Source of the DNA: an uncultured Deferribacteres bacterium
GTDB lineage: Bacteria > Zhuqueibacterota > Zhuqueibacteria > Zhuqueibacterales > Geothermadaptataceae
Length of the DNA: 21,050 nt
NCBI GenBank assembly: GCA_964014485.1
Contig: CAXHAT010000141.1
Span: 1-21,050, forward strand
Reading direction: 5' to 3'
Part shown: piece after piece, positions 3,565 through 21,050 of the stretch
Layout: each line of letters opens with the position of its first letter
How positions within the stretch are numbered: position 1 is the stretch's first letter
Notes under the pieces: model-generated
The model's database searches: none
Told to the model about the DNA's origin: nothing
What the model saw: the letters and a program-made list of their open reading frames with translations, nothing else
Translations under genes and position numbers: made by a program

Positions 3565-4125
3565 CTACTTTTTAATGCCCAGACGCGCGCGTTCCAAAGG
3601 CACGTTGATCCATCTGGTCGGCGTTCCGCCTTTGATCACCAAGCCAACGACCAGTCCGGAAACGACGCCGCCTGCAGCAAAATACATTCGTTTAAGCGCG
3701 CGATGATTGTTCCCGTCAATTGGCGAAACTAGCCCGGCAATTGCTCCCGCGCCAACCCCAATCGAAACCGGCCAACTGGGTTTTTCGGTAAGTAATTGGA
3801 TTCTTTGGATCGCGTCAAACGGAATCTTAACATAGGATTGCCACCTTTCAATGCGCACTTCGAGAAAATAAGAGTCGAGCCAGAGAACGCGCCCTTCAAA
3901 TTCCCAATCGCCGTCGAAGACAACTTCTTTTTCTTTGATGGTAGCTTTGAATGATCTCGCCGTCCCCCGGACGGTTGCGCCTTGCGGCACCATTGGTTTC
4001 AAAATGAGACTATCGGGCTCGGCGAGTTTTTCCCCTGCGTTAGCCGTCCTTGCAAAATGTGCTTGAGTCGCAAGCGCCAAAAACACTCCGAGCGCAAGGA
4101 ATCGCGTTAAACTTCTCAAACTCAC
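3565..4125 (-). CDS. Hypothetical exported/membrane protein with C-terminal Gly-rich helices
   Basis: Signal-peptide-like N-terminus, small beta-rich domain and two Gly-rich hydrophobic segments. The GTG start overlaps the upstream gene's stop by 4 bp. Confidence 0.65.
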   Translation of the reverse strand: MSLRSLTRFLALGVFLALATQAHFARTANAGEKLAEPDSLILKPMVPQGATVRGTARSFKATIKEKEVVFDGDWEFEGRVLWLDSYFLEVRIERWQSYVKIPFDAIQRIQLLTEKPSWPVSIGVGAGAIAGLVSPIDGNNHRALKRMYFAAGGVVSGLVVGLVIKGGTPTRWINVPLERARLGIKK

Positions 4126-5099
4126 CTCAACTTCCGGTTAATGTTCAGACTTCGAAGTAAACCAATGGTTGCCCAAGCAGTTCCCCAATAATTTGAAATC
4201 TTTGGGTCGCCTCTTTCCATTTTCATCGTGTCAACGCGCCATTTCCCGGATTCTTGCTGCGTGGCCAATAGATAGTTCTGCGCTTTGTAAACCGCCTTCA
4301 ATTCTACGGATTTTGTCTCTAAAAGAGCATAAAGCGCTTGACCTGTCGTGAGCGGATTGCTCTCGCCGTCCTGAAACCAGCCCCAGCCGCCGTCTTCGTT
4401 TTGCCGCTCGAGCAGGCGCGCCAGCAAGTTCTCGCGATGTTGAGAGTTTTCTATAACATCCGCCAAAAGAATTCCAAGAATGATTGGCTCATTTGTTTCA
4501 TATTCGTCTGTTCTTTCGATCCAGGTCAAAATGGCGTCGCAAAGGATTCGATGATTTGCGGCATTTTGTTTGGATTTACCAAGCGCGAGCAGCGCCCAAA
4601 GATTGTTGACCTTCTTGGTTTCCTCAATTTCACGGTCGAGAAAAGGCATTTGTCCGCCGACGCGCCAAGTTCCGTCAACTTTTTGAGCGTCCAGCATGAT
4701 TTTAACCAGCGAGTCTAGGCTGTCTGTTTTCAAAGGCAGGTTGTCGTTCGATTTTCCCAAAATGAGTTTACTTAACCCGGCAATGTTGCTATGCCCTGAA
4801 GGTAAACCTTTGCTGTTTCGCTCAAGCGATTTTTCCAACGCCCAATTTCTCCAGGAGTCGAGCGAAAGCGAATCGATTTCGACGCCGCTTCGTTTCGCTT
4901 CTGCATGGCTCCAAATCATGAGCGGGACGTGGTGGCAGGAGACGCAGTTTTGATCCATGATCCAGAGCAGTCCGTCACGTCGCAGATAGGGCAAACTGCG
5001 TTCAACGGCGTCGTGAATGCGAATGTTGACAGACTCATTGGGTATTTCGGAACCGGGTAGAAAAGTGAAAAACGTGACGATGAGCGTGATGAAATTCAT
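4122..5099 (-). CDS. Prenyltransferase/squalene-cyclase (QW) repeat protein with CxxCH motif
   Basis: QW-type repeats AQKVDGTW, RQNEDGGWGW and TQQESGKW. CVSCHH at 4929-4946. Hydrophobic N-terminus. No DxDD cyclase motif. Confidence 0.8.
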   Translation of the reverse strand: MNFITLIVTFFTFLPGSEIPNESVNIRIHDAVERSLPYLRRDGLLWIMDQNCVSCHHVPLMIWSHAEAKRSGVEIDSLSLDSWRNWALEKSLERNSKGLPSGHSNIAGLSKLILGKSNDNLPLKTDSLDSLVKIMLDAQKVDGTWRVGGQMPFLDREIEETKKVNNLWALLALGKSKQNAANHRILCDAILTWIERTDEYETNEPIILGILLADVIENSQHRENLLARLLERQNEDGGWGWFQDGESNPLTTGQALYALLETKSVELKAVYKAQNYLLATQQESGKWRVDTMKMERGDPKISNYWGTAWATIGLLRSLNINRKLR

Positions 5100-5108
5100 A
5101 GGATTGCA

Positions 5109-6530
5109 TTATTCTTGTAAACTTACGCCGGAGGCGAACCTGCCGACTTCAAGGACTTTCACAATTTGGTTTGTAGCGAGATCAATGATTGAAATCGTCC
5201 CGTCGTTTGCATTGTCGCCGAAATCGTGGCGCGGCTTATAACTGCCGTCAAGATTTCGATTTGACACGTACGCGAATCCGTTTCTGGAAACGGCCATGCC
5301 GTGCGGCTGCGCCAAGCTTGGATGTTCGATGGTTGCAACAACTTGCAAGGCCGCAACATCAATGATGGAAACGGAGCGCGAACCGTTGTTGCCGACATAA
5401 ACAAATCGCCCGTCAGGACTAAAAGCGGGATGCCAAGGATTGGCGCCGACGTCAATCGTCGCGACAATTTTGCGATCTTGTGGATCGGAGACGTCGAGAA
5501 CGAGCATTTGACCGGCGGCTTGCAGCGAAAGAAACAGGAGCTTGTCATCCGGGGATACGCGCGCTTGCAACGGCCCCTTGTTTGCTCCCAGCGAAATGAA
5601 CTCGTCGACTTCTTTTGCCGCATGGTCAATGACGATCAATTGATTTTGCGGAATGCTCGCCGTGTATAAGAATTTTCCCGCATGATCACCAGCCATTGCG
5701 TGCGGAATACGAAAATTGACCGAAATTTCGCCGTTTTCAACGCCATTGACTGGAGTCATTGTTTCGCGATTAAAAATGAAGACCGAAGTCGGCGGCGAAT
5801 CCGGGCTCATGAATCGCGAAACATAAATGACGTCCTCGGTCGGATGCAGGAAAAGCATAGCCGGAACCGGAACATCAGCTTCAGCGACAACCTCGTTTTG
5901 CATGTTCAATTTCAAAACCTTCCCGTCACGAATCAGCGTCAAATACCAAAAACTCCCGTCCGGCTCAACCGCCGTGAAGTGCGGAGCGGAGTCGATTGAA
6001 TAACCCAAGTCGTCCATTTTGATATTGCGAATCACCACGTTGGCTTCCGTATCAACAATCGAGACCATGTTTTGGTTCTGATTGCAGACGTAGAGTCGAT
6101 TTGTAGAATTTTGAAAAGGTGATTCTCCCGCCCCGTTTTGAGCCCCTTCATCAATCCATCCGGCAAGAAAATCTCCGGCCTCGGTTGAAAGTGTATCAGC
6201 GTCGTATTCTTTCGGGTGCGGCCCGCCGTTAAGCTTGGTGAGTATTTCGATCATTCGACTGTTTTTCGAGTCAAACGGAATGAACGCCTCGCCAAAATCT
6301 GAACCGGCAATTGCTTGTTCCCATGACGATAAATTGAGACCGGATTCAGCCTGCAAGTTGCCATGACAGTCCGTGCAATTTTCGTTGAACAAGCGTTGAA
6401 CATGTTTGTTGTAATCAATTTTGGTGATGCCGCCGAAGTCCAACGGTTCCGGCGCAACGGCGTGTTCGCAGCCCCATATTCCTAAAACAGCGATTAGAAA
6501 AAGCCCCGGTGTAAGTCGTTTCAAGACCAT
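5109..6530 (-). CDS. Lipoprotein with Planctomycete-type cytochrome c domain fused to a YVTN/YncE beta-propeller
   Basis: Lipobox IWG|C. IDYNKHVQRLFNENCTDCHG...SGLNLSS...WIDEGA matches the PSCyt1-like pattern. Propeller repeats include RLYVCNQ, VGANPWHPAFSPDGRFVYVGN and GTISIIDLATNQIVKVLEVG. Confidence 0.85.
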   Translation of the reverse strand: MVLKRLTPGLFLIAVLGIWGCEHAVAPEPLDFGGITKIDYNKHVQRLFNENCTDCHGNLQAESGLNLSSWEQAIAGSDFGEAFIPFDSKNSRMIEILTKLNGGPHPKEYDADTLSTEAGDFLAGWIDEGAQNGAGESPFQNSTNRLYVCNQNQNMVSIVDTEANVVIRNIKMDDLGYSIDSAPHFTAVEPDGSFWYLTLIRDGKVLKLNMQNEVVAEADVPVPAMLFLHPTEDVIYVSRFMSPDSPPTSVFIFNRETMTPVNGVENGEISVNFRIPHAMAGDHAGKFLYTASIPQNQLIVIDHAAKEVDEFISLGANKGPLQARVSPDDKLLFLSLQAAGQMLVLDVSDPQDRKIVATIDVGANPWHPAFSPDGRFVYVGNNGSRSVSIIDVAALQVVATIEHPSLAQPHGMAVSRNGFAYVSNRNLDGSYKPRHDFGDNANDGTISIIDLATNQIVKVLEVGRFASGVSLQE

Positions 6531-6742
6531 TAATTCTTTCGTTTTAAGGTTGCGTTTGCAAAGATTGGAGATCGGTGAAAATAGTCGTCAAGAGCATGGA
6601 ACGCAATTGTTTTCTCGAGCTCTTTTGTGCCTAGGCAAGATTGGTCTCAAGCCGGTGTGATCACAGAAAATCAGGGTTAAATTCCCGCCACACTGATTTT
6701 CAATCTGTACAGAAAACGAATTCGATTGACCACATAAAAAAT

Positions 6743-8386
6743 ATGATTCCGCTCGATCTAACCGCCGCATCTGAAGCCGCAATAGCCATCGCCGCTTTTC
6801 TTCTCGCTTATGCCGAGACGCATTACCGTTTCAAGTTTATCCCCAGTCGTTATTTCAAAAAAGAGCCGGAAATCATTTTTGACATGCCGCGAAGAGTGGA
6901 GCCGAATCTGGACTTGCCGATTCTTTTGCTCATCAAAGACGCGCACCACTATCCGGTACATTTAAAAGACGTTCGAGTGCAGGTTCAGGAAAACGATTCC
7001 AGAATCTGTGAACAGCATTTTCTCATCGACAAATCGGTTGACCGGCAGTGGTTTTTTGAACTTTTCACCATCCCGCGCAGCAAGATTGGCAATGGGCAAA
7101 AATACGTATTGATTGAATGCACGATCATCATCCATGGCCGCGCCAAGGTGATCCGCGCTGATAATTATGCGCTGACAAAGCATCAGCCGTATCGTTGCTT
7201 TTTCGCGGATGAAACGCTCCCGTTGACGGAAGATTACTACACCGGCGACTTGCATACGCATTCCTGGTTCACTAGCGACCAGGTTGAATTTGGCGCGCCG
7301 TTGGAAGCAACCGTTGCTATGGCGAAAGCGACGGGGCACGCCTTCACTGCGATCACCGACCATTCCTATGACCTCGACGACGAGCCCGTAAATTTTTTAA
7401 AGAACGATCCGGAACTTAAAAAGTGGCGCGCGTTTCAGGCGCAAGCGTTAGAGCTGAATTCCGAGAACGATGATTTTGTTCTGTTGCCGGGAGAAGAAGT
7501 TTCCTGCGGTAATTCGCAAGGCGAAAATGTTCATTTTTTAGTTTTCAACAATCCGGCATTCATTCCCGGGGCAGGAGACAGCGGCGAAAAATGGCTGCAA
7601 ACAAAACCCGATTTGTCCATTGCTGAAGTGATACAAAGCACGCAAGCAAACGCACTGCATTTCGCGGCGCATCCGCAAGCGCCGATTCCGTTTTTGCAGC
7701 GACTTTTGCTCAATCGTAACGTCTGGCGCCGACCGGATTACCAACACGAAAACTTGAACGGTTTGCAAATTTGGAACGGTCATCCGCAGGGCAGGAGGGA
7801 AGGCCTTGAAAGTTGGAAAAAACTTCTTCTGGACGGTCAGAAAAAGTTCATCATCGCGGGGAGTGACGCGCACGGCAATTTCAACCGCTATCGCCAAATA
7901 CGAATGCCGCACTTGATTCTCGATGAGCACGAAAAACATCATTTGTTTGGGCAGCACCGAACAATTGCGCACTTGCCGGACGGACTTTCTTTGAATAATC
8001 TAATCCTGGCTTTGAAAACCGGCGCTTGCAGCATAAGCTCGGGGCCTTTTCTGGCGATTTCAGCCGAAACGTCTGACGGCGAGAAAACTTTCATGGGCGG
8101 GACAATTGTTAGCGAGGAGGCCGAATTGAATATAATGATCAAATCCACTTCCGAATTTGCACCGCTGGAGCAAGTTGTACTCTATTGCGGCGATTTGAAT
8201 GAGAAAGTTGAAAAAGTCATTCACAAAATCTCACTCGATGGCGCACGGGGAATTGACCGAAGACTTCAGACAAGTACCGGACGGAGGCGCGATCCGGTTT
8301 ATTATCGTGCGGAATTGCGATCATCGATCGATGGTAAAACTGAGACGACCGCGCTTACGAATCCAATCTGGCACGAACCTTTGTAA
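6743..8386 (+). CDS. PHP-domain metallohydrolase (CehA/McbA-like)
   Basis: PHP metal-ligand motifs GDLHTHS, AITDH, GEEVS, AAHP and GSDAH. Start placed at ATG 6743; the ORF extends upstream to 6641. Confidence 0.85.
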   Translation: MIPLDLTAASEAAIAIAAFLLAYAETHYRFKFIPSRYFKKEPEIIFDMPRRVEPNLDLPILLLIKDAHHYPVHLKDVRVQVQENDSRICEQHFLIDKSVDRQWFFELFTIPRSKIGNGQKYVLIECTIIIHGRAKVIRADNYALTKHQPYRCFFADETLPLTEDYYTGDLHTHSWFTSDQVEFGAPLEATVAMAKATGHAFTAITDHSYDLDDEPVNFLKNDPELKKWRAFQAQALELNSENDDFVLLPGEEVSCGNSQGENVHFLVFNNPAFIPGAGDSGEKWLQTKPDLSIAEVIQSTQANALHFAAHPQAPIPFLQRLLLNRNVWRRPDYQHENLNGLQIWNGHPQGRREGLESWKKLLLDGQKKFIIAGSDAHGNFNRYRQIRMPHLILDEHEKHHLFGQHRTIAHLPDGLSLNNLILALKTGACSISSGPFLAISAETSDGEKTFMGGTIVSEEAELNIMIKSTSEFAPLEQVVLYCGDLNEKVEKVIHKISLDGARGIDRRLQTSTGRRRDPVYYRAELRSSIDGKTETTALTNPIWHEPL

Positions 8387-10430: not shown

Positions 10431-12251
10431 ATGAATAATGCAAAAATAAAAACCGGCAGTTTGGTCTTGTACAAAAATGGCCCGGCCATTGTGCAAAGCA
10501 CCGGCGAAAAAATTGAAATAAAACTGGCTGAGAAAGGGACGCGGCGCGTTCGGCTAAAGGACGTGGTTTTGTTGCATCCCGGTTCCGTTACGTCTCACGC
10601 GGAGCTGCGCCCGGTAAAAGGCGAAATCGAGCAAGCGCGCGAATTGCTGGAAGGCGAAACCACGACCCTGGAAGAATTGGCCGAATTGGCCTTCGACGAA
10701 TTTACGCCGGCGACGGCCTGGGCGAGTTGGCAGGTCATCGCCGATGGCGTGCATTTTACAGGAACGCCAGACGCTGTAATCGCCAGAAGCGCGGAAGAAG
10801 TGGCTCGAGAAACGCAAGTTCGTGCGGAAAAATCGGCGAAAAAGCAGGCAAAAGCCGCTTTTTTTGAAAGGGTTGAAAGTAAACGACTTGAGGACCAAGA
10901 TCGCCCCAAATTTGCCGAAGTGGAAAAGCTTGCGCGCGGGCAGGTTGAAAAATGCAGACTGATGAAAGAACTGGGGCGCGAAGAAGATCGTGAGCACGCC
11001 CACGCGCTTTTGCTGGAACTTGGGCTCTGGGATGAGACGCAAAATCCGTATCCCGCGCGCTACAAGCTGCCGATGAAAGCGCCTGATTTGCCCGTGCCGG
11101 AGCTGCGCCAAGAAGAACGAATCGATCTCACGCATCTCGACGCATTTGCAATCGACGACGAAGGCAATCAAGACCCTGACGATGCGTTGAGTATCGACGG
11201 CGACCGGGTTTGGGTGCATGTCGCCGACGTGGCTGCGCTTGCACCGCCGGAAAGCGATTTGGACGCGGAAGCGCGCGGCTACGGCGCAAATCTTTACCTG
11301 CCTGAAGGGACAATCTCGATGCTGCCGGACGCCGCGCGTGCTGCGCTTGGGCTTGGCTTGCACGAAATTTCTCCAGCGCTTTCTTTTGGTTTTCGATTGT
11401 CTGAATCAGGCGAGCTTGATGATGTGGAAATTGTCCGGTCTCAGGTGCGAGTGACGAGAATGACCTACGCGGAAGCGGAACAAGTCCTTGATCAAAACCC
11501 GTTGAGCGAATTGAAACGACTTTCTGAAGTTTATGAACAACGCCGACTCGCGAACGGCGCTACGCGTTTGGAATTGCCGGAAGTCAAAATTCGCGTCGTT
11601 GACGGCGAGGTAACAATCCAGGCATTGGCGGCGCTCAAGAGTCGCAACCTTGTGATGGAAGCGATGCTGATGGCGGGCGAGGCGGCGGCGCAATTTGCAA
11701 TCGAAAACGATCTGCCGTTTCCTTTTACGACGCAGGCGGCGCCGGAAGAAGTCGAACATCCGGAAACTTTGGCGGAAATGTACGCTTACCGGAGAAAATT
11801 TAAACCAAGTCAAATGAAAAGCTCGGCGGGGTCGCATTTTGGTCTCGGTCTGGAGAAATACACGCGAGCCACCAGCCCGCTGCGGCGCTATCTTGACTTG
11901 GTGGCGCATCAGCAATTGCGTGCATTTATTTCAGGTGAAACGCCGCTGTCGAGCGAAGAAATCGTCGCACGGGTCGGAGCTGCGGAGGCGGTTTCGGGCG
12001 GCGTGAGAAGGGCGGAGCGACTCTCAAATCGGCACTGGACGCTGGTTTATCTTTTGAGAAATCCAGGGTGGGAGGGAGAAGGCATTCTCGTTGAAAAAAG
12101 GCACGGCAACGGCGTTTTCCTGATTCCTGAACTTGGGTTTGAAGCCACGCTGCACTTGCCGCGCGATTTTGAGCTGAACGCGCGCGTCCCGCTGAAATTC
12201 AAATCAGCAAATTTGCCGGAATTGACGGCGCGGTTTGGTGTTTCCGTATAA
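10431..12251 (+). CDS. RNB-domain exoribonuclease (RNase II/R family)
   Basis: Catalytic AIDDEGNQDPDDALS, VHVADV, HFGLGLEKYTRATSPLRRYLDL. Start placed at ATG 10431. Confidence 0.93.
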   Translation: MNNAKIKTGSLVLYKNGPAIVQSTGEKIEIKLAEKGTRRVRLKDVVLLHPGSVTSHAELRPVKGEIEQARELLEGETTTLEELAELAFDEFTPATAWASWQVIADGVHFTGTPDAVIARSAEEVARETQVRAEKSAKKQAKAAFFERVESKRLEDQDRPKFAEVEKLARGQVEKCRLMKELGREEDREHAHALLLELGLWDETQNPYPARYKLPMKAPDLPVPELRQEERIDLTHLDAFAIDDEGNQDPDDALSIDGDRVWVHVADVAALAPPESDLDAEARGYGANLYLPEGTISMLPDAARAALGLGLHEISPALSFGFRLSESGELDDVEIVRSQVRVTRMTYAEAEQVLDQNPLSELKRLSEVYEQRRLANGATRLELPEVKIRVVDGEVTIQALAALKSRNLVMEAMLMAGEAAAQFAIENDLPFPFTTQAAPEEVEHPETLAEMYAYRRKFKPSQMKSSAGSHFGLGLEKYTRATSPLRRYLDLVAHQQLRAFISGETPLSSEEIVARVGAAEAVSGGVRRAERLSNRHWTLVYLLRNPGWEGEGILVEKRHGNGVFLIPELGFEATLHLPRDFELNARVPLKFKSANLPELTARFGVSV

Positions 12252-12332
12252 CGGGCAACCGTCTCTGGAAGAGTTGTTCACTGGTGTTACGCACGCCAAT
12301 GCATCGCCTGTTGCTCAGACTTGAACATGGTT

Positions 12333-12460
12333 TCATTAGCACCGGGCTTGAGCCCGGTGACGTGCAAGGCGCTCATTTTCATTCCTTCCGCCGCGCCAGC
12401 GCGGCGGAAGGGATGGGACGCGTCTTCAAAAATCTCCGCTCTGAAGAGCGAAGCTAATGA
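12333..12460. repeat. REPIN-like element: two inverted TTAG-hairpin units flanking a central hairpin
   Basis: TCATTAGC with hairpin CACCGGGCT-TG-AGCCCGGTG (12340-12359). Central hairpin at 12380-12415. Inverted unit CTCCGCTCT-GA-AGAGCGAAG-CTAATGA (12434-12460). Lies between convergent genes and may also act as a terminator. Confidence 0.7.
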
Positions 12461-12573
12461 GAATCAAAAAGTTGCCTGTGGGCTTTAATCGCGCGTGCCA
12501 AACGGCGGTGCGTAACATCAGTTATTCAAGCGAGTATTGGGGAAAGGTGAACGCTGTGGGGATGGTCGTGACT

Positions 12574-14898
12574 CTACTTCAGCGATTTCTGCATGATTTC
12601 CATCTGGATTTTTCGCAGTTCCAGATCGAATTCGGTGAAATTGCCGAATCGTGCGTTGGGGGCGCTTTGCAGCGCTTTCATGACCAGAGCGTGCCAGGCG
12701 TCGATGAAATCATGCTTTTGCTTGCGGAGAGATTGGATTCTTGCACGTTTCAAATCCTTGGGCGCTTTTATACTGCCGACCGTTGAGTAAGGATGTTTCC
12801 CGGCAATGATCTCATAGAGCAGCGCGCCGAGGGAATAAACGTCGCTTCGCAGATCGGCGGCGCTCTCTTCAAACAACTCCGGCGCGCGGTACCGCCATTG
12901 CGCGGGGTAAAGGACGCCTGAGCCGTCCGACTGAGCGCTGAAAGCCGGCAGAAAAAAATCAACGATCTTGACTTGATTGGCTTGGCTGACCCAGACATTT
13001 CCGGGCTTCAGATTAAGATGCATCAAGCCTTCACGTTGCGCATAAAGCAACGCTCGCACCAACGCTTGGGTCGTCGCAAGAACAGTTGCTTCTTTTTGCT
13101 CCTCGTCAAATTCAGCTTCGGTGACGGGCTTGCCTTCCACGTATTCCCTGACGTAAAAAATGAGATTGTCTTGCTGCCCCATGTCATAAAGATTGGCGAT
13201 GTTCGGGTGATTCAGGCGGCCAATTTCGCGCAGCTTGTCAAACAATTTTTCCCGTTCAACATCATTTTCCAAATACTTGACCGCATGTTCCGGGGTCAAG
13301 GTTTTGATTATGACCGGGCGATCGAGCTGCGTGTCATGCGCCAGATAAGTGGCGTAATTCTCGTTCTGCAACAGGCATTTGCCTAACTCGAATCGGCCAA
13401 TTTGGTAAGACTGACCTTGTTGAACGTGGGACAAAGGATTGTACCAAATCACTTCAGACCAGGCTGACTGATGTCCAGGCATGAGCATCGCCGCGGGTTT
13501 GGGCAGAAGCGTTATGGAAGATTTTTCTCCAGCAATCCCATTCTTTTCAGCGGTATTCAATAGAATGGCGCCAGCGCCGCGATATTGGTCGTCCGTTGCA
13601 TTTTCGGCGAATTTGAGTAAATGCGCGGCCTTGACCAGTTCGTTGAGAAACGCTCGGTCGTCGGATGCGTTTTTTGGCAAAAGATGCAGCGCCCCGGCAA
13701 CGAAAACGCGCCCTGAGTCAGGCACGGCTGCGTTATATTTTTCAAGATGTTTTAAAAGTCCGATGACTGAAGAAATGACCGCGTTCGGCTCGGACCCAAG
13801 GCACAGAAAACCGGTTCCGCTTTGGCGCACCAGCGTCTGTTTTATTTGGGAAATGCTCGAAGAAACAAGCTGAATGAGTTTTTCGGGAATTTGGCCGCCT
13901 CGCTGCAAACGAATCTTTAGGAACAAGATGCTTTTCCATTCTTCGACGCTTGACGACTCGCCGCCTTCCTTCTCAGAGCATTTTTCCAATATGTTCAGAA
14001 TTTCTTCCCGCAGCGAAAACTCCGCCATGTGCGGACTGTCTGAATTGATCCGAACGCCCCCGTTTCGAATGGCCTGAAAAACCTCTTCAAGCGAGACATG
14101 TCCAAGAATAAACTCGTACTCTTCGATCTCGGCTTTTTGGAGATTCGCCTGTACGATTTTGTCCGGAACGCAAGCGCGCAGCAGAAGGTACTCTCGCAAA
14201 ACGTCCAAAGATTCCCGGATATCCAGATTCTCCAGAGCAACGATTGCTTTGTCGACGGTTTCTCGATTCGTGAGGAATTTGTTTTGCGCAAAATGCTCAT
14301 AGGCCGTGGTGAGAAGCGAGTGCCTGTCGATAAACGTCGTCAGCCCGTTCTCGCGTCCTGCGTCGTCCAGGGCTTGGTGCGCTTCGGGGAAGCGGCCGTT
14401 CCACCAGAGTTCTTCGAGGTAGTTTCTGATGACCTTCTTGTTTTTCGTATTGAAAACAACGTCGTGCTCCATTCTTCCCGCTTGCGCGTCGTCGCCGACG
14501 TGCTCATAATGCTCTTTTAAAAAGAGCCGAACTTTTTGCGCGTTGGGAGAATTGAGTTTCGCCGCTTCCTCACACATTTGAATGGCGAACGGGCGGGTCA
14601 CGTTTTTTTGGACGAAGAGCGTAGCCAGCCCCATTTTGAGCGCATTGGCTTCCAAATTGCCGGAAACGGCTTTCTTATACAACGCTATCGCATCGTCGGA
14701 AATCTTGCTCAAGCCGACGGCGGCAACAGAAGCGTCCATGGCGTATTCAACATTATCTGGAGCCATTTCTACCAGTTGCTTCAGCTTTTCGTATGCTTCG
14801 GCGAACTGTCTGCGCTCTAGATAAGCTTTCCCCAATTTGTGAAGCAGTTGCTCAACGCGCTCTTGCTGTGTGCTGTCTGTTGTTTGTGTCATCGCCAA
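12574..14898 (-). CDS. TPR + degenerate class III cyclase-like domain + Ser/Thr kinase-like (pseudokinase) protein
   Basis: Kinase fold motifs LDRPVIIK, LNHPNI, EYVEG, HLNLKPGN, KIVDFF, YRAPE and SDVYSLGALLYE. N-terminal TPR (LGKAYLERRQFAEAYEKL). Central cyclase-like pattern. Start is TTG 14898 or ATG 14892. Confidence 0.88.
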   Translation of the reverse strand: MAMTQTTDSTQQERVEQLLHKLGKAYLERRQFAEAYEKLKQLVEMAPDNVEYAMDASVAAVGLSKISDDAIALYKKAVSGNLEANALKMGLATLFVQKNVTRPFAIQMCEEAAKLNSPNAQKVRLFLKEHYEHVGDDAQAGRMEHDVVFNTKNKKVIRNYLEELWWNGRFPEAHQALDDAGRENGLTTFIDRHSLLTTAYEHFAQNKFLTNRETVDKAIVALENLDIRESLDVLREYLLLRACVPDKIVQANLQKAEIEEYEFILGHVSLEEVFQAIRNGGVRINSDSPHMAEFSLREEILNILEKCSEKEGGESSSVEEWKSILFLKIRLQRGGQIPEKLIQLVSSSISQIKQTLVRQSGTGFLCLGSEPNAVISSVIGLLKHLEKYNAAVPDSGRVFVAGALHLLPKNASDDRAFLNELVKAAHLLKFAENATDDQYRGAGAILLNTAEKNGIAGEKSSITLLPKPAAMLMPGHQSAWSEVIWYNPLSHVQQGQSYQIGRFELGKCLLQNENYATYLAHDTQLDRPVIIKTLTPEHAVKYLENDVEREKLFDKLREIGRLNHPNIANLYDMGQQDNLIFYVREYVEGKPVTEAEFDEEQKEATVLATTQALVRALLYAQREGLMHLNLKPGNVWVSQANQVKIVDFFLPAFSAQSDGSGVLYPAQWRYRAPELFEESAADLRSDVYSLGALLYEIIAGKHPYSTVGSIKAPKDLKRARIQSLRKQKHDFIDAWHALVMKALQSAPNARFGNFTEFDLELRKIQMEIMQKSLK

Positions 14899-14916
14899 AA
14901 TGCAGATCGATGTACG

Positions 14917-16839
14917 CTACGATCTTTCCTTTTCATCACGTAATGCATTTTCAAGAACGTCTATAGCGTCTGAAGAAACAGTCGCTTCTTCAATGAGGAA
15001 ATTCTGCGCCACAAATGTCTGGATATTTTCTTTTTGCGCCGCCGCAAGATTGTTCTCGAGAACCGTCTTGTAAACTTTCATCGCTCGCGCGTCTCTTTTC
15101 CCCGCCAACAAGTAAAGACTGGCAAGCATCGGGTAATATTTTAACCGGTCAGGATTTTTTGCGATAATTCGCTCATAGATTCTAAGAGCAGCCTGATTGT
15201 TGCCTTTCGCCAACAATAGCTTGGCTCTTATCGCGGGCGAAAATGCAAGGAATCCAAGAACGGGAAAAACAAGCAGCGACAAAACGATCCCGCCTAATAC
15301 AAAAGGCTGGAGGCTTTCGTTATTACTCGCTTCTTCAGCTAGAGCGTGGTTTGCGGTTGGAATATTTACGCCCAGGCGTTGTCGAGTGGCGCTTATCAAA
15401 TCATCGACGTTTCGGTAAGAGCCTGCCAGTAGACGCAATTTCTCCAGGGCGGTGAGAGCGGTGACCAATTCGTTGCTGTCCAGCGCTTCCAGAGCATGTT
15501 CGTAAAGTGCGTCAAGCTCTGAACTTTCAACTCGATGCGCAGAAGCTGCTTGAGGTGCGGAAGAATGGCGATTTTCCGCTTCATGCAATTGTCTGGTTCG
15601 AGAGAGAAGCTCGCCAATGTTTCGATAATTCGGATCGATGGCATGGACTTTTTGCAATGCTTCTAACGCTTGCACCGGCTGATTGTCATTGAGCGCTGCG
15701 AGTCCTTCAGTGTAGTGTTGCGCGGCGAGATTTGAAGAAGCGGTCAGCTTGGCGTTAGCGCGCGAATCTTTCAGTTTGCGCTGAACGTTTCTGAAAGAAG
15801 GATCGAGAGAAGCGACATTTTTGAAGGCGCTGATGGCCGCTTCCCATTCTCCGCCCTGAAATGCAACCAATCCCTTTTCATAGAGCTCTTCTTTCCGCGA
15901 TTCCAATCGCGCAGCTTTTGCCGCCGTATTTGCAAGCGTTTTTTTTGCCTGTGTTAATCTTTTTGCTGCATTTTGGTGACCTGGGGACTGCCTAAGTACA
16001 GCTTCGAAGCGGGCGACGGCTTGCTCAAAACGGCCCTGTTTTTCAAATCCCAAGCCTTCATTGTAGAGCTGCTCAATTTTGTCGTGATGCGTTTTTGCCG
16101 CAAGCTCTTGTCCGATAGTTTGGAGTTTTTCCGAAACGTCTTTGTAGGTTGGATCTGTTTGGTGAATTTGTTCCAAAAGCGCGACTGCATCATCAAATTC
16201 TCTCGCAGCCAGAGCCGTTGACGCTGAATCGTAAAGCGCTTCAATCTGCATTGCGCGAGTAACGGTCGCTGCATAATTGCGCAAAAACGCTTCGTTTTTT
16301 GGCTTCTCCGCGATGCTTTTCTCAACGGTTTCCAATGCCAATCGATACTGGCTGGAAGAAAAGAAGGTTCGCGCGAGTTCGAGCGAAATTGTCGCACGTG
16401 TGTTCTTGTCGTTAGCTACGTTCAGAGCGCGGAGAAGAGCGTCTTGTGTTTGCGGAAGCTTGTTCTGTCTTCTATAAGCCTGCGCAAGTTCGTAAACGAT
16501 CTTCATTTTGAGATCATTGCGTCCACGAAAGTTGAACGCTTTCTCCGCTCTCCCAAAATAGATTTCCGCTTGCGCAAAATCATTCTCGCCTTTGAAAACC
16601 AGGCCGAGATTGTAGAGCGCTTCCACAAAAGTCGGTTCAATTTTTAACGCCGCCTGATAGGCTTCGATCTTTTTTTGAACCGTTCTTTCCTTGGCCGCAA
16701 TATTGAACCACTTCATAGCTTCAGCCTTGATCGACTGACCGGCAGTGCTGTTTTCAGTGAGCGAGAGCTCGGAAGCTGCGGCCCCAAAAGCGCTCAAGAA
16801 GAGCGCCATGCAAATCGCGCAGGCTGACGAAGTTTTCAA
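14917..16839 (-). CDS. Single-pass membrane TPR protein (signal peptide, extracytoplasmic TPR repeats, TM, cytoplasmic TPR)
   Basis: TPR EPTFVEALYNLGLVF, repeated DPxYxNV-like motifs, TM FVLGGIVLSLLVFPVLGFLAF. In-frame TTG at 16839 has AAGGAG 7 nt upstream, so it is preferred over GTG 16863. Confidence 0.85.
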   Translation of the reverse strand: MKTSSACAICMALFLSAFGAAASELSLTENSTAGQSIKAEAMKWFNIAAKERTVQKKIEAYQAALKIEPTFVEALYNLGLVFKGENDFAQAEIYFGRAEKAFNFRGRNDLKMKIVYELAQAYRRQNKLPQTQDALLRALNVANDKNTRATISLELARTFFSSSQYRLALETVEKSIAEKPKNEAFLRNYAATVTRAMQIEALYDSASTALAAREFDDAVALLEQIHQTDPTYKDVSEKLQTIGQELAAKTHHDKIEQLYNEGLGFEKQGRFEQAVARFEAVLRQSPGHQNAAKRLTQAKKTLANTAAKAARLESRKEELYEKGLVAFQGGEWEAAISAFKNVASLDPSFRNVQRKLKDSRANAKLTASSNLAAQHYTEGLAALNDNQPVQALEALQKVHAIDPNYRNIGELLSRTRQLHEAENRHSSAPQAASAHRVESSELDALYEHALEALDSNELVTALTALEKLRLLAGSYRNVDDLISATRQRLGVNIPTANHALAEEASNNESLQPFVLGGIVLSLLVFPVLGFLAFSPAIRAKLLLAKGNNQAALRIYERIIAKNPDRLKYYPMLASLYLLAGKRDARAMKVYKTVLENNLAAAQKENIQTFVAQNFLIEEATVSSDAIDVLENALRDEKERS

Positions 16840-17001
16840 GTGAAAGCTCCTTTGCTGATACACGGCAATTCTTCGTGTTCAAATTTAATGTTCAAACGCC
16901 CAGGCCTTTTGGGTTAATCGTTGGCTGGACGTTACAGACTAATGATAATGCAGTGGGGCTGTCCAGAAACATAATATTTTTATGGCGTCCCACAATATGT
17001 C

Positions 17002-17029
17002 GTAGGGGTTCAAGATTTTGAACCCCTAC
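17002..17029. repeat. GTAG-type REP palindrome
   Basis: GTAGGGGTTCAA-GATT-TTGAACCCCTAC, a perfect 12-bp stem beginning with GTAG. Confidence 0.75.
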
Positions 17030-17088
17030 TGCATGTGTGTCGCTTCACAATTTTTGTGTTTTGGGACGGTCGCATTCCGGTTTTCAAA

Positions 17089-17108
17089 TCAAACGCTGAA
17101 GCGTTTGA
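17089..17108 (-). terminator. Hairpin just downstream of the 17124-19013 gene (terminator, processing site or REP-like)
   Basis: TCAAACGCT-GA-AGCGTTTGA, a perfect 9-bp inverted repeat 15 bp after the stop, followed by a short TTTG on the minus strand. Confidence 0.45.
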
Positions 17109-17123
17109 CTCCGATCCGGGCGG

Positions 17124-19013
17124 CTAAGCGTTGCCGTCTTTTTTCATTTCTTGTGAAAGCGCGTTTTCGAGCACGGAAATCGCATCATCGGTTGAGGGCA
17201 CGCCGCCGATATACTTCTGGTTGACGATGGACTGTATTTCTTCGCGATTCGGCATGACCAAATTGAGCTGCAGGATTTTTCGATAAATCTCGACCGCTTT
17301 TGCATCGTTGCGGTTGCTGAGCAGGTAGGCCTTTGCCAGCGAAGCATACAGCTTCAGGCGACCCGGATTCTTCTCAAGCAGGCCTTCGTAAATAGCTGCT
17401 GCTGCTGCGTACTTTCCGGCCATCAGGTAGAAACGTGCGCGAATAACCGGAGACATTGTGACGGCGCCGACCACGGGCGCAACGATAACCGCCGCCAAAA
17501 CGCCAATAATGACAAAAATCGAACTTCCGCTTTCCGAGTCGTCAACGTCATTCGCCGTAAGGCGGGCGCGTTCGTCGGCGACTTTTATGCGAGCGGTTGC
17601 AAGCAAGTCGGAGACGTCGTATTTGTTAGCGACGAGTCCGTTCAAGCGGCTGAGCGTGTTTTCTGCAGCGCGCCAGTTTTCCACCGCCATTTGTTCGAGC
17701 GCGCGCTGATAGAGCGAATCGGCTTCGGCGTTATTGTCGGGCATGGTCATCACCGGCGTTTGCGAAACAAATGCCTGCTCGGTGATTTTTTGCTCAATTT
17801 TTGAGATCAACTGCGAGGTGTTTTTGTAAGCGGGGTCCAGAATCCGAACTTTCTCAAAGGCAGTAAGTGCGCGCGTGTAATCTTCAGCTTGCATAGCAGC
17901 CATGCCTTCGACATAGAGCTCAATGATTTGCGTTTTCTTGCCTTGTTCGCTCAACGCTTCCTGCGCTTTCTGCAGACGTTTTGCGGCGGCCTTGTTGTCC
18001 GGCTCGAGCTTGACGACTCTCTCAAAAGCAATCACGGCTTGAATCCAGTCGCCCTTGCCCAGCGCTTCTTCTCCGGCGAGGTATTGGGAACGCGCTTCTT
18101 TCGCCGATTTTTTCCTCTGTAATTCCGTTCGTGCAGTGTTCAAACGGCTTTCCAGACCAACGATTGGCTCGCTAGAAGTGCGCTTTAAATTCTCATAAAT
18201 GGCAATCGCCATCTCGAACTTGCCGTCCTGCTCGTAGCTCTCCGCCTGTTTTAAGGCGGTCATGTTGGAATTGGCGCGGTCTTTTTGTGCAACGGCGGTT
18301 CGCAAGCTCGCAATGCGCTGGCCAACGTCACGATAAGTGCTGTCAATTTGCTGAACCTGGACAAACAATGAAAAAGCGGATTCCGTCTCTTGCTTGGTCT
18401 GTGCATCCAGCGCCTTGGCGTAAAGCTGCTGCAGCATGATTTCGCGATTCGACGATTCTACAATTTTGGCGAAGAGGTTTTTGTATGCCGGGCTGAGGTC
18501 TTGGCCTTCGTTTGCTTCCGCCAGCGCTTCGACGTACCGCTTTTCATCGTGTAAAATTCGGCTAAGTTCGTAAATAATCTGTGTGCGTTTCTCGCGATGT
18601 TTCGCCGAAGCCTTTGCTTCGCGCAAAGTGGCGATGCTTTCCGCAACGTTCCCCAATTGCTTGTGCATGGAAGCCAATTCATAAAGAATCGCGACCCGGG
18701 TCTCTTTTTTAATGCGCCGTTTTTTAATGCTTTCGGCCGCTTTGAAATGAGCAAGCGCTTCAACGTAATTTTTTTGTTTTTTCTCAAGCAGCCCCAGGTT
18801 GTAAAACGCTTCAACAAATTTTGGATCGACTTCAGTCGCTTTCTTGAAAGCCGCGATTTTTTTAGCGACGTCTTGCTCTTGCGTCGCTTTGTTAAACCAT
18901 TTCACGGCTTCGGGGTTGGTTGTGGAATTTTCCAGCGCCGATGCGTTCATAGCAAAGGCGGCGCTCAGGACAAAAAACAGTGCGGCGCGGCTGGCGGTGA
19001 ACAGACTTCTCAT
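17124..19013 (-). CDS. Single-pass membrane TPR protein, paralog of 14917-16839
   Basis: GAGGAG RBS, signal peptide, TPR DPKFVEAFYNLGLL, TM IFVIIGVLAAVIVAPVVGAV, cytoplasmic TPR-like tail ending DAISVLENAL. Confidence 0.88.
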   Translation of the reverse strand: MRSLFTASRAALFFVLSAAFAMNASALENSTTNPEAVKWFNKATQEQDVAKKIAAFKKATEVDPKFVEAFYNLGLLEKKQKNYVEALAHFKAAESIKKRRIKKETRVAILYELASMHKQLGNVAESIATLREAKASAKHREKRTQIIYELSRILHDEKRYVEALAEANEGQDLSPAYKNLFAKIVESSNREIMLQQLYAKALDAQTKQETESAFSLFVQVQQIDSTYRDVGQRIASLRTAVAQKDRANSNMTALKQAESYEQDGKFEMAIAIYENLKRTSSEPIVGLESRLNTARTELQRKKSAKEARSQYLAGEEALGKGDWIQAVIAFERVVKLEPDNKAAAKRLQKAQEALSEQGKKTQIIELYVEGMAAMQAEDYTRALTAFEKVRILDPAYKNTSQLISKIEQKITEQAFVSQTPVMTMPDNNAEADSLYQRALEQMAVENWRAAENTLSRLNGLVANKYDVSDLLATARIKVADERARLTANDVDDSESGSSIFVIIGVLAAVIVAPVVGAVTMSPVIRARFYLMAGKYAAAAAIYEGLLEKNPGRLKLYASLAKAYLLSNRNDAKAVEIYRKILQLNLVMPNREEIQSIVNQKYIGGVPSTDDAISVLENALSQEMKKDGNA

Positions 19014-19048
19014 AACAGGCTCCTCTCAGTTGTGTTTCCTCAAAACGC

Positions 19049-20680
19049 TCAGAACTCGACGGCCAGAATGTCGCCGCCGGCAATACGGTTGTCCGATTTC
19101 TCCCGAATAATATTTCCCTCTCTGTCCCGTATAGAAATGGCGTAAACGCCCGGCCGCAGATAAAACCCGTTTTCCAAATACGCTTTCAAGTCGCCCAGCC
19201 TGGAATCGTTGACAAAAATGCTCGCTTCATCGTAAGCCTCGGCGCTAAAGCTTCCGACCAGATAGATCAAGCCGCGATTCTCGTTCGTCTGCTGATTTCT
19301 CGATCTTGCGCTCGGCTCTCTGTCGCCGATAGTTTCGGCATTTCTTGTTTGCGCACTGAAATCGTTCGACTTGCGATTGGCAACGGATTCCAGATAAATA
19401 TTTTGTTTCTGATAAATGATTTTCTGCGTGGAATCCGCGACCGCCCAAGTGTATGTTCCAGCGTAAACGGGCAAGCCGCGAGTGAACTCGGACAATTCAT
19501 CCAAGATGCGCGCGCCGCGTAAGCTCCGCAGGAGATCGAGATGCGTTTTGTCCGTTACCTGCAGCAAGACAAGCGTTCCCGCTTCCGAAATTGGCGCATC
19601 GCTGGCTTGTGGAATAAAACTGGTTGGACTGAGACGAGATTCGCCTGCGAGCAAACCGCTGTTGAGGACGGGAGAATGCCCGGCTTCCTGGCCGTTTTGC
19701 TGCCAGAAAAAAACAGCAAGAATAATAAGTGCAGCCGCGGCGGCGGCATAAGCGAATAACTTGTTGGGAAGCTTGTTTTTCTGCACCGGAACGGCGTAAG
19801 CGCCCTTGATCAGTCTCGTTAAAAACGCGCCGACTTTTTCAGATTCATCGCTAAGCGTTTTTTCAAAAACCGTCGGCGCCAATGCGTCGCCGGCGTTATC
19901 GGAAATGTGAATGACCCCGGCGGTAATATTGTCAGAGCCGTCCATTTGCTTGGCCAAAGCTACAATTCTGGAAACCATATCTTGATGCGTTTCATAAGGT
20001 GCGGAGAGTACGCTGTGGATTAATTCGTCGGCGAGGGCGTTGTGCAGGCCATCGGAGCAGAAGAGATAGGCGTCGCCTTCGCGGGTATTTTCAATTCTCA
20101 AATCGACTTTGACGGTGGGATAAATGCCAAGCGCGCGAGTGAGTACGTTTTTCTTGCTAAAATCCTGTACTTCCTGCTCGCTGATTTCCTGATCTTCCAG
20201 CAGTTCGTTGATCCAGGAATGATCTTTCGTCAACGCTTCCAATTTATTGTCGCGCAGACGGTAAATTCTGCTGTCGCCCACATTGGCGGTAAAAATCCAG
20301 CCGTCGTGAAGAACGGCGGCAACCAGCGTTGATCCCATGCCGCGAAACTGTGGATTTGAAGCGGCGTGCGTGATCACGCGGCGGTTGGCCAGACGCACGG
20401 CGGCGAGCAAACGCATCGCCGGTTCGGGAAGCTCGTCGTCAACGTCTTCACACGCTTTTTCAAGATCAACCTCGAGTTGGCCGCTGAGAACGTCTCGGAC
20501 TGTTTCGCACGCAAGACGGCTCGCCAGCGCGCCCGAGGCGTGTCCGCCCATGCCGTCGCAAACGACGAAAAATTTGTGCTCTGGAGAATAATAAAAGGCG
20601 TCTTCGTTTTCCTTACGCACCAGGCCGACGTCGGTGGCCGCCGCCATTCCCGCCTGAACGTCCTGTTTCTGTTCGATCAT
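19049..20680 (-). CDS. PP2C (PrpC/Stp1-type) Ser/Thr phosphatase with TM helix and C-terminal extracytoplasmic domain
   Basis: Motifs TDVGLVRKENED, VCDGMGG, NVGDSRIY, LTKDHS, NVLTRALG, CSDGL and SDNIT are intact. TM LFAYAAAAAALIILAVFFW. Confidence 0.93.
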   Translation of the reverse strand: MIEQKQDVQAGMAAATDVGLVRKENEDAFYYSPEHKFFVVCDGMGGHASGALASRLACETVRDVLSGQLEVDLEKACEDVDDELPEPAMRLLAAVRLANRRVITHAASNPQFRGMGSTLVAAVLHDGWIFTANVGDSRIYRLRDNKLEALTKDHSWINELLEDQEISEQEVQDFSKKNVLTRALGIYPTVKVDLRIENTREGDAYLFCSDGLHNALADELIHSVLSAPYETHQDMVSRIVALAKQMDGSDNITAGVIHISDNAGDALAPTVFEKTLSDESEKVGAFLTRLIKGAYAVPVQKNKLPNKLFAYAAAAAALIILAVFFWQQNGQEAGHSPVLNSGLLAGESRLSPTSFIPQASDAPISEAGTLVLLQVTDKTHLDLLRSLRGARILDELSEFTRGLPVYAGTYTWAVADSTQKIIYQKQNIYLESVANRKSNDFSAQTRNAETIGDREPSARSRNQQTNENRGLIYLVGSFSAEAYDEASIFVNDSRLGDLKAYLENGFYLRPGVYAISIRDREGNIIREKSDNRIAGGDILAVEF

Positions 20681-20993
20681 CTCTCACAATCCCGTCAATG
20701 TTGATAGAAAAGCCCCTGTTTTTTCCATACAACAATTGCAGGCTTTTGCGCACCGGCGGAAATGAAGTTCTTGCAATTTTCATATGCCTGCATTCGATGC
20801 GCAGTTGGGATAATCCTTTTTCATGACGTTACTTATTTCATTTCTTAACTGATTTTACGCGCCAGCTATGAAGCCAAAGAAACTCCTGTTAAAGTCATTC
20901 CCGCGCAGGCGCATATGCGTCAACCTAATTTTGAAAGAAGTCGGGCTTTGATGCGTTTATACTCTCAAGGTGCTGTTTTTTAAGATGTTGATT

Positions 20994-21050
20994 TTTCATT
21001 AGCCCCGTCCTTCAGGGCGGGGTTGAGGCGAAATCGCGCTCATCCCCTTC
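20994..21050. repeat. Second copy of the TTAG REP/REPIN-like element, cut by the window end
   Basis: TTTCATTAGC, then CCCCGTCCT-TC-AGGGCGGGG, then GCGCTCAT...CCTTC, paralleling the element at 12331-12388. Confidence 0.65.

Follow-up and report, generated by a model that had tools for sequence, protein, structure and literature searches.

Gene Content of the Locus

We analyzed a 21,050 bp stretch of DNA from an uncultured Deferribacteres bacterium (GenBank assembly GCA_964014485.1; 8.4 Mb in 465 contigs, 50% G+C). This stretch, here called the window, is the entire contig C141 (CAXHAT010000141.1) and contains 14 open reading frames (ORFs). Our subject is a set of four co-oriented ORFs on its minus strand, in the order PP2C-TPR_A-TPR_B-PK, which encode a putative membrane-anchored phosphatase, two membrane proteins rich in TPR hits, and a soluble protein, PK, that combines a helical repeat with two degenerate enzyme folds. 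As judged from gene order in relatives, the four genes are the distal half of a cluster that is conserved in genomes titled KSB1 or Zhuqueibacter. The features of the locus are listed below.

20681..21050: non-coding leader of the PP2C gene up to the contig end, 370 bp; no ORF continues into it
20680..19049, minus strand: PP2C-type Ser/Thr phosphatase, 543 aa (Pfam, NCBIfam, motifs, transmembrane segment, orthologs)
19013..17124, minus strand: TPR_A, 629 aa (TPR hits, signal-like N-terminus, transmembrane segment, tail)
16864..17123: spacer between TPR_A and TPR_B, 260 bp, with two hairpins that resemble repetitive extragenic palindromes (REP-like)
16863..14917, minus strand: TPR_B, 648 aa, with a GTG start and an ATG 18 codons in (architecture as in TPR_A)
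14898..12574, minus strand: PK, 774 aa, soluble (Pfam, 19-ortholog alignment, AlphaFold2 models, Foldseek, VIA-align)
12434..12453, minus strand: terminator-like hairpin with a T run, 120 nt past the PK stop (consensus scan only)

An earlier sequence-only reading had proposed that the four genes form a transmembrane signaling module, with gaps of 35, ~280 and ~20 bp and with repeats filling the second. The ORF listing returned the same coordinates, order and orientation, with gaps of 35 bp between PP2C and TPR_A, 260 bp between TPR_A and TPR_B (314 bp with the downstream ATG as the start of TPR_B), and 18 bp between TPR_B and PK (24 bp counted from the ATG). The repeats in the second gap are indeed present, and both are copies of genome-wide REP-like elements. 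The genome has 186 copies of the 12-mer core of the first hairpin (16997-17034), many of them in inverted pairs with 16 nt between, and 18 copies of a 20-mer of the second (17089-17108). Both hairpins, together with a repeat in the leader, had multi-copy depth in an independent contig set. The contigs of this set (DNA, run X1), which are short and of low depth, covered all 30 bins without differences and do not bridge the whole stretch. The hairpin at 12434..12453 is a possible end of the transcription unit. When positions 12200-21050 were scanned for promoters and terminators, the number of sites was no higher than in shuffled sequence, with 19 terminator-like sites found and 15.9 expected.

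Predicted Proteins of the Four Genes

The product of the first gene matched PF13672 (PP2C_2) with an E value of 1.5e-17 (64.3 bits, cut-off 24) and PF00481 with 29.5 bits (cut-off 20.3). Its score against the NCBIfam model for Stp1/IreP-type PP2C proteins (NF033484), 226.9 bits, was slightly below the equivalog cut-off of 230. The motifs NED (residues 25-27), DGMGG (42-46), SDG (209-211) and DN (250-251), which we take to be those that hold the metal-binding Asp residues of PP2C enzymes, are all present. Based on the hidden Markov model matches and these motifs, the protein can be assigned to the PP2C/PPM phosphatases of the Stp1/PstP type, and orthologs with 34-50% identity are encoded beside FHA and PK genes in relatives. 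Its predicted parts are as follows.

Residues 16-257 (nt 19910-20635): PP2C catalytic domain, cytoplasmic
Residues 308-326 (nt 19703-19759): single transmembrane segment
Residues 327-543: extracytoplasmic C-terminal domain, 217 aa

TPR_A and TPR_B gave many TPR hits, and no catalytic domain was among their Pfam matches. The two proteins are 30.8% identical over 637 aa and share one plan: a hydrophobic, signal-like N-terminus, a stretch of ~470 residues with many TPR hits, a single transmembrane segment, and a tail of 109-112 aa that again scores as TPR. The tails are the best-conserved part of the TPR paralogs, with a mean column identity of 47% and an invariant pattern, Y-E...P...L...Y...D..A, among 29 tails from 16 genomes. 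Conservation of this degree is as expected for tails that have a cytoplasmic partner in common.

TPR_A, residues 499-517 (nt 17463-17519): transmembrane segment
TPR_A, nt 17127-17462: conserved cytoplasmic TPR tail
TPR_B, residues 521-539 (nt 15247-15303): transmembrane segment
TPR_B, nt 14920-15246: cytoplasmic tail

PK has no transmembrane segment, gave TPR hits in its N-terminal region, and matched Pkinase at residues 520-751 (E value 1.8e-25; 90.3 bits, cut-off 31.7). An AlphaFold2 model of the whole protein, with a mean predicted local distance difference test score (pLDDT) of 83.5, was composed of three parts.

Residues 6-243 (nt 14170-14883): helical/TPR repeat, 13 helices
Residues 323-484 (nt 13447-13932): alpha/beta domain with a class III cyclase fold
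Residues 498-773 (nt 12580-13407): pseudokinase with a Hanks fold

The best Foldseek matches of the kinase fold were the kinase domains of PknB and PknA (E value 7e-14; target TM-score 0.72-0.83). Residues were compared in an alignment of 19 sequences, comprising PK and 18 orthologs or paralogs of other genomes with 23-45% identity. The catalytic Asp of the HRD motif was replaced by Asn (position 629) in 19/19 sequences, and the alphaC Glu was retained in one of the 19; the Gly-rich loop is absent from PK, in which LGKCLLQNENYATY is found at 505-518. Other parts of the active site have been kept, a mixture that is typical of pseudokinases. The beta3 Lys (Lys-532 in PK) is Lys in 16 sequences and Arg in three, and the DFG Asp is retained in all 19, as are the Lys and Asn of the catalytic loop and the APE motif. 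In place of the DFG Gly there is mostly Arg, with Phe, His and others also found.

The middle domain (292-492), when modeled alone (pLDDT 85.6), matched the class III cyclase Ma1120 in Foldseek with an E value of 5e-6. Comparison of this model with 48,161 chains by VIA-align gave Ma1120 with Z 14.9 (root-mean-square deviation 3.0 Å, 153 residues aligned), Rv1900c with Z 14.0, and CyaB with Z 13.9; the first 22 rows were all class III cyclases (Z 14.9-10.4), and GGDEF domains had Z values <10. The kinship to cyclases is visible by fold only, as PF00211 matched 0/19 PK sequences at E <= 10, a profile search of PDB sequences with the middle domain found no cyclase, and hhalign of this domain with four cyclase domains of the same genome gave a probability of 0.5%, which is not significant. 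In the cyclases of the same genome, the two metal-binding Asp residues, D11 and D55, are invariant. At the positions that correspond to them in the PK family, an equivalence that is approximate because it relies on strand order in the model and on the non-significant hhalign alignment, no Asp was found at the first (14 Gln, 2 Lys, 2 His, 1 Glu) and Asp was found in 4/19 sequences at the second (the others being 4 Thr, 3 Asn, 3 Ala, 2 Val, 1 Ser, 1 Ile and 1 His). Taking alignment and models together, PK is predicted to be a double pseudo-enzyme, without canonical catalytic residues in either its cyclase or its kinase fold.

These results are largely in line with the sequence-only reading, which had described a membrane-anchored PP2C with intact motifs, two paralogous signal peptide-TPR-transmembrane-TPR proteins with no catalytic domain, and a soluble TPR/cyclase-like/kinase-like protein of which the kinase-like part is dead. 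Its term "cyclase-like" holds at the level of the fold and fails at that of the sequence profile.

To define the family, HMMER was used to scan 1.84 billion representative proteins with a profile of PK residues 1-495, without the kinase domain. At E <= 1e-30 there were 66 matches (about 66 clusters at 50% identity), with 350 at E <= 1e-10 and 6,069 at E <= 0.001. Among the best 150 matches, the weaker hits were mostly generic matches to multiple TPR stretches. The motif H-x-N-L-K-P-x-N was present in 54 of these 150, with Gly or Ser in the place of the substituted Asp in 2 more, and the 16 that have Asp at that position are unrelated long TPR-kinase proteins. A word-index search with PK residues 1-500, which was too insensitive, returned only PK itself and one 42%-identical relative.

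A Conserved Cluster in Related Genomes

Gene order was compared in two surveys that partly overlap. Survey 1 consisted of 18 loci around the best PK matches, in which ORFs were assigned by BLAST to the window proteins. Survey 2 consisted of 42 loci found with the PK alignment in one genome per species; a scan for related loci with the single PK sequence had found no relative. Synteny, which the sequence-only reading had proposed to check, is conserved, as TPR genes and/or a PP2C gene were found directly upstream of PK orthologs at 16/18 loci of survey 1. At 11 of the 18 (L013, L016, L017, L018, L019, which is cut by a contig end, L020, L025, L026, L028, L029 and L030), the order was KIN-FHA-PP2C-(TPR x0-2)-PK on one strand, where KIN denotes a kinase gene and FHA a gene for a protein with FHA domains. 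Genes with the TPR, transmembrane and TPR-tail plan (TPR/TM/TPR-tail genes) between PP2C and PK numbered zero in three of these loci (L013, L029, L030), one in five, and two in three. The rest of survey 1 had TPR-TPR-PK without PP2C (5/18) or PK alone (2/18). The loci of survey 2 were distributed as follows.

KIN-FHA-PP2C-(TPR x0-2)-PK: 19/42
TPR(-TPR)-PK with no PP2C in the available DNA (OMP, an outer membrane protein gene, upstream in 2): 10/42
PK alone: 2/42
Too short to judge: 6/42
Distant kinases outside the family: 5/42

In the relatives, KIN is a protein of ~900-1,000 aa with an N-terminal Pkinase domain (E value ~1e-42), PEGA repeats and CarboxypepD_reg, and the FHA protein, of ~800 aa, has two FHA domains (E value ~1e-36) and FG-GAP repeats. 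A TPR/TM/TPR-tail gene was also observed directly upstream of KIN in several genomes. On this comparison of gene orders, the full order of the cluster is [TonB-type OMP]-TPR-KIN-FHA-PP2C-(TPR x0-2)-PK.

Kinase and FHA Genes on a Second Contig

Searches of the whole assembly with tblastn revealed single clear orthologs of KIN and FHA in the middle of contig C2 (123 kb). The C2 KIN (986 aa) and the C2 FHA protein (794 aa) are 52-56% and 45-49% identical, respectively, to the proteins of two relatives. The order of genes on C2 is TonB-type OMP, TPR_C (545 aa), KIN, FHA and gcpE, and TPR_C has the same architecture and tail as TPR_A and TPR_B. As FHA is followed here by gcpE and not by PP2C, the cluster is truly interrupted after FHA in this genome. 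The C2 KIN has a glycine-rich GGFG segment and the motifs VAIK, HQD, DFG and APE, and the catalytic Asp of HxD and the DFG motif are invariant in 11/11 KIN orthologs; KIN is therefore predicted to have kinase activity. A long linker rich in Lys, Ser and Thr lies between its kinase domain and the membrane. Reading the C2 FHA protein by eye, we found two N-terminal FHA domains, a hydrophobic stretch, an FG-GAP region, and a C-terminal hydrophobic stretch.

One claim of the sequence-only reading has to be given up in light of these data. It had regarded the phosphatase as the only intact enzyme of the system, and a KIN with intact motifs precedes FHA-PP2C in the relatives and has its ortholog, along with that of FHA, on C2. 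The reading had also named a larger, FHA-associated cluster with an active kinase as a finding that would speak against it, and a cluster of this kind, with a kinase predicted to be active, was found at 11/18 loci of the first survey and 19/42 of the second.

The lack of an intact kinase gene in the window has two causes, the split of the cluster in this genome and the end of the contig, within a repeat, 370 bp upstream of PP2C. A phosphatase without a kinase is thus the result of a lineage-specific split plus a contig boundary, and not a property of the system. This case, in which a partner that seemed to be missing from one fragmented assembly was explained through relatives and the rest of the genome, is a caution for similar analyses. 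The repeat, of ~65 bp at about 20845-20911, was found by blastn with 80-98% identity on >100 contigs, very often at contig ends. It looks like a miniature inverted-repeat transposable element or REP-like element that fragments the assembly, and the assembly break at the end of the window is probably due to it. The last 55 nt of the window recur unchanged as the first 55 nt of contig C351 (1-55), and contig C209 has, at its end, a second identical 55-mer from the leader. These identities probably represent assembly-graph overlaps at k = 55 through the repeat, and the join of C351 to the window is uncertain. C351 was considered as the source of a kinase gene upstream of PP2C and was rejected, as it encodes NusG_II-like, DUF3570, redoxin and asparagine synthase proteins instead.

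The N-terminal ~200 aa of the OMP upstream of TPR_C (L031; C2, 15450-18743) are without assignment. This region shares 40% identity with the beginning of a 649-aa ORF on contig C145 (L032; 8776-10725), which lies upstream of another TPR paralog, and pairs of an OMP-like gene and a TPR/TM/TPR-tail gene thus recur in the genome. Two further TPR paralogs were found in tandem on contig C31.

Phyletic Distribution

Full-length relatives of PK occur in all nine of the other genomes in the window's own family and in most genomes of a second family, and additional families of the class have them as well. The FHA/FG-GAP protein (E <= 1e-40) was present in 9/9 genomes of family f1, 17/19 of f2, 2/2 of f5 and 2/2 of f6; the two f2 genomes without a match are 75% and 79% complete. 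PK-type proteins follow the same pattern (f1, f2, f5, f6), and in f6, where the PK matches are weaker, they are on the same contigs as the FHA match and a few kb or less away from it. Neither PK nor FHA was found in the eight genomes searched from f3, f4, f7 and f8, which are 94-100% complete. These tallies include two unpublished genomes (G016, G023), which were kept out of the alignments and models; without both, the f2 counts are 17/17 for PK and 15/17 for FHA, and the conclusions are unchanged. As the relatives are not independent of each other, the phyletic pattern is supporting evidence and not a statistical test. All full-length PK relatives are in records titled candidate division KSB1, Candidatus Zhuqueibacter or Coneutiohabitans, Calditrichaeota, "bacterium", or "uncultured Cytophagia", and the cluster is so far confined to an uncultured phylum. 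On the strength of these titles, the organism of the window most likely belongs to the KSB1/Zhuqueibacterota lineage. Two f5 genomes (G031 and G036) were observed to have three or four FHA/FG-GAP paralogs and several PK-type genes, which suggests that the whole cluster has been duplicated in them.

Proposed Function and Alternative Explanations

We hypothesize that the four genes belong to a reversible Ser/Thr phosphorylation system of the cell envelope, consisting of kinase, FHA protein and PP2C, in which PK is a non-catalytic scaffold or regulator. We give this hypothesis a probability of about 0.68, with most of that weight on the view that the genes belong to a kinase-FHA-PP2C system in which PK is non-catalytic, and far less on specific contacts. 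KIN, FHA, PP2C and the TPR proteins each have one or two predicted membrane spans and large non-cytoplasmic domains, which are PEGA/CarboxypepD_reg in KIN, the FG-GAP propeller in FHA, the 217-aa domain in PP2C, and TPR in the TPR proteins. A rearrangement would have left OMP-TPR_C-KIN-FHA on C2 and PP2C-TPR_A-TPR_B-PK on C141. KIN would sense an envelope or extracellular cue and phosphorylate Thr/Ser on itself or on partners, the FHA protein would read the resulting phospho-threonines, and the PP2C of the window would reset the phosphorylation state. PK, through its helical repeat and its two degenerate folds, would link the TPR tails to the kinase/phosphatase pair as a cytoplasmic scaffold or allosteric regulator. 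A complex prediction for full-length PK with the cytoplasmic tail of TPR_B scored 0.22, for which the mark is 0.32, and is neutral either way.

A more detailed version of this proposal, which we offer as speculation and would not expect to hold in full, is that PK still binds a nucleotide and is an allosteric switch. Docked on the TPR tails, it would, through its pseudokinase domain, pair with the KIN kinase domain, or else block PP2C, and would in this way set the level of the phosphorylation that FHA reads. If true, this would represent a bacterial counterpart of the pseudokinase-driven kinase activation of eukaryotes, within an envelope-spanning receptor complex of an uncultured phylum.

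Several observations weigh against the proposed kinase-FHA-PP2C system with a non-catalytic PK. The catalytic loop of KIN reads H-x-D-(I/V)-(S/T)-P-x-N in 11/11 orthologs, with Ser or Thr in place of the usual Lys. The 260-bp spacer may be the site of a transcript end or of an internal start, and with these repeats between TPR_A and TPR_B the four genes need not share one transcript. The retained beta3 Lys, DFG Asp and loop Asn make nucleotide binding, or a non-canonical activity of PK, still conceivable. Finally, the TPR-TPR-PK loci, 10/42 and 5/18 in the two surveys, hold the ortholog of the window's PK. In at least three of them (L027, L035, L037) an OMP gene precedes TPR-TPR-PK and no PP2C, kinase or FHA gene lies nearby, and several such records hold a distant PK paralog, PK' (~25% identical), in a separate KIN-FHA-PP2C-PK' locus. 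The combination of OMP-TPR-TPR-PK with the ortholog and KIN-FHA-PP2C with the paralog was seen in one family. Considered together, these loci indicate that TPR-PK may be a separable sub-module.

The main rival to our hypothesis builds on the last of these points. It holds that TPR_A-TPR_B-PK form a sub-module of their own, possibly acting with a TonB-type OMP in envelope assembly or transport, that is only loosely coupled to the kinase-FHA-PP2C trio and came to lie beside PP2C by rearrangement. This would fit the OMP-preceded loci just described, the OMP directly upstream of TPR_C on C2, and the existence of clusters in which no TPR gene separates PP2C from PK. However, the records with OMP-TPR-TPR-PK often also hold KIN-FHA-PP2C-PK' (L059, L062, L064, L066, L069, L070), so that a PK-type protein still accompanies the trio, and the phyletic distributions of PK and FHA are identical. 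The presence of TPR/TM/TPR-tail genes directly upstream of KIN as well further ties the TPR proteins to the trio, and we consider this alternative unlikely.

Less can be said for the sequence-only reading, taken as an autonomous receptor module that is centered on the phosphatase. Such a module would be composed of a pair of TPR receptors, a dead adaptor and a PP2C that resembles a receptor, and would work with no dedicated kinase. The co-oriented genes with their short gaps, the lack of an intact kinase gene in the window, and the arrangement of the genes apart from KIN-FHA, with gcpE next to FHA on C2, are all as this explanation would have them. It is nevertheless improbable, as PP2C directly follows KIN-FHA in relatives of the same family (L013, L016-L019, L025, L026) and at 19/42 loci of survey 2, the genome retains single KIN and FHA orthologs, and a PP2C requires phospho-substrates made by some kinase. 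That PK is not dead at all, and is a kinase of an atypical kind or a switch that binds nucleotides, with Asn in the role of the catalytic Asp, is most improbable, for while the conserved shell of its active site (beta3 Lys or Arg, DFG Asp, loop Lys and Asn, APE) suggests ligand binding and some eukaryotic kinases with HRN retain weak activity, the catalytic base is missing from all 19 sequences, the Gly-rich loop and, in all sequences except one, the alphaC Glu are gone, and the DFG Gly has given way to Arg, Phe, His and others.

Other Genes of the Window

Elsewhere in the window, the minus strand of 4122-6530 encodes a protein with a PSCyt1 planctomycete-type cytochrome c and a beta-propeller, beside a squalene-hopene-cyclase-like repeat protein. 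This pair is followed by an ORF with no family hit (3565-4125). A 581-aa protein encoded on the plus strand at 6641-8386 had no Pfam hit and matched the CehA/McbA metallohydrolase domain of NCBIfam with an E value of 7e-29.

Comparison with Known Systems

Clusters of Hanks kinase, FHA and PP2C genes are familiar from bacteria, for example the fhaA-fhaB-pstP...pknA-pknB region of mycobacteria and prpC-prkC. The cluster described here is similar to them in that a membrane kinase, one or more FHA readers, and a membrane PP2C are encoded side by side, and the best-scoring models for its catalytic domains are Stk1/PknB for the kinase and Stp1/PstP for the phosphatase. A vWA-STPK-FHA-PP2C operon of Deinococcus radiodurans (STPK, Ser/Thr protein kinase), as presented in the available part of the report on it, is an analogue of the core trio (10.64898/2026.01.23.701218). 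Unlike in the PASTA-kinase cell-wall cluster, the ectodomain of KIN is of the PEGA/CarboxypepD_reg and not the PASTA type, and there is no adjacent rodA or pbpA. The cluster also differs from other Hanks/FHA/PP2C clusters in that its FHA protein carries an FG-GAP propeller outside the membrane, that it has additional TPR/TM/TPR-tail proteins and a TPR/pseudo-cyclase/pseudokinase protein, and that it is split over two loci in this genome.

The threonine phosphorylation pathway of type VI secretion systems (T6SS) consists of PpkA-PppA-Fha1 with TagQRST. It shares with our cluster a trans-envelope logic in which outer membrane or periplasmic accessory proteins are combined with an inner-membrane Hanks kinase, an FHA reader and a PP2C eraser. 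The accessory proteins of our cluster, however, are unrelated TPR proteins, and the T6SS pathway is without a pseudokinase. No T6SS family was found in the 14 ORFs of the window, in eight C2 ORFs around KIN-FHA, or in the upstream genes of two relatives; no search for such genes was made elsewhere in the genome.

Seven families of bacterial pseudokinases, all with a substituted VAIK Lys, are reported in the available text of a kinase atlas, which also mentions a pseudokinase linked to MviN/MurJ (10.1101/2025.01.12.632604). As far as that text describes them, they resemble PK in having a conserved Hanks fold that lacks a residue of the catalytic triad and is presumed to be non-catalytic. They differ from the PK family, which keeps the VAIK Lys/Arg and the DFG Asp and loses the HRD Asp, the Gly-rich loop and the alphaC Glu. 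The combination of TPR, cyclase fold and pseudokinase was not found in the available atlas text; its supplementary tables could list it.

The TOMM kinase/cyclase fusion model TIGR03903 matched PK with 50 bits, far below its cut-off of 705.75, and only through the kinase part (residues 539-701 on model positions 7-186). Such fusions and PK are alike in carrying a Hanks fold and a class III cyclase fold on one polypeptide, along with TPR in the bacterial fusions. In the known kinase/cyclase fusions the cyclase domain is active, whereas PK has the order TPR-cyclase-kinase and both of its centers are degenerate. A kinase-homology (pseudokinase) domain is also carried by the receptor guanylyl cyclases of animals.

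A role in anti-phage defense was considered and is not favored, as PADLOC-DB 2.0 gave only generic kinase-domain matches: PK and KIN matched kinase-domain models alone (PD-T4-6, mad6, PglW), PP2C matched one candidate model weakly, and TPR_A, TPR_B, TPR_C and FHA had no hits. The sequence-only reading had not recognized the genes as a described system, and we agree, as full-text literature searches (PEGA/FHA/FG-GAP/PP2C and pseudokinase/cyclase-homology/tetratricopeptide) returned no description of the gene set. Term searches of the main text of two genomic papers on KSB1/Zhuqueibacterota gave no mention of Ser/Thr kinases, phosphatases, FHA or TPR proteins.

That bacteria use reversible Ser/Thr phosphorylation with FHA readers is well established; few bacterial pseudokinases are known, and hardly any work has been done on them. 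The PK family is small, is regular in the residues that it has kept and lost, and by synteny goes with a kinase, an FHA reader, a phosphatase and TPR membrane proteins. It therefore offers a clearly delimited system for studying the function of a bacterial pseudokinase. Overall, the core of the cluster is familiar Hanks/FHA/PP2C signaling, and its unusual part is the conserved protein with a dead cyclase and a dead kinase.

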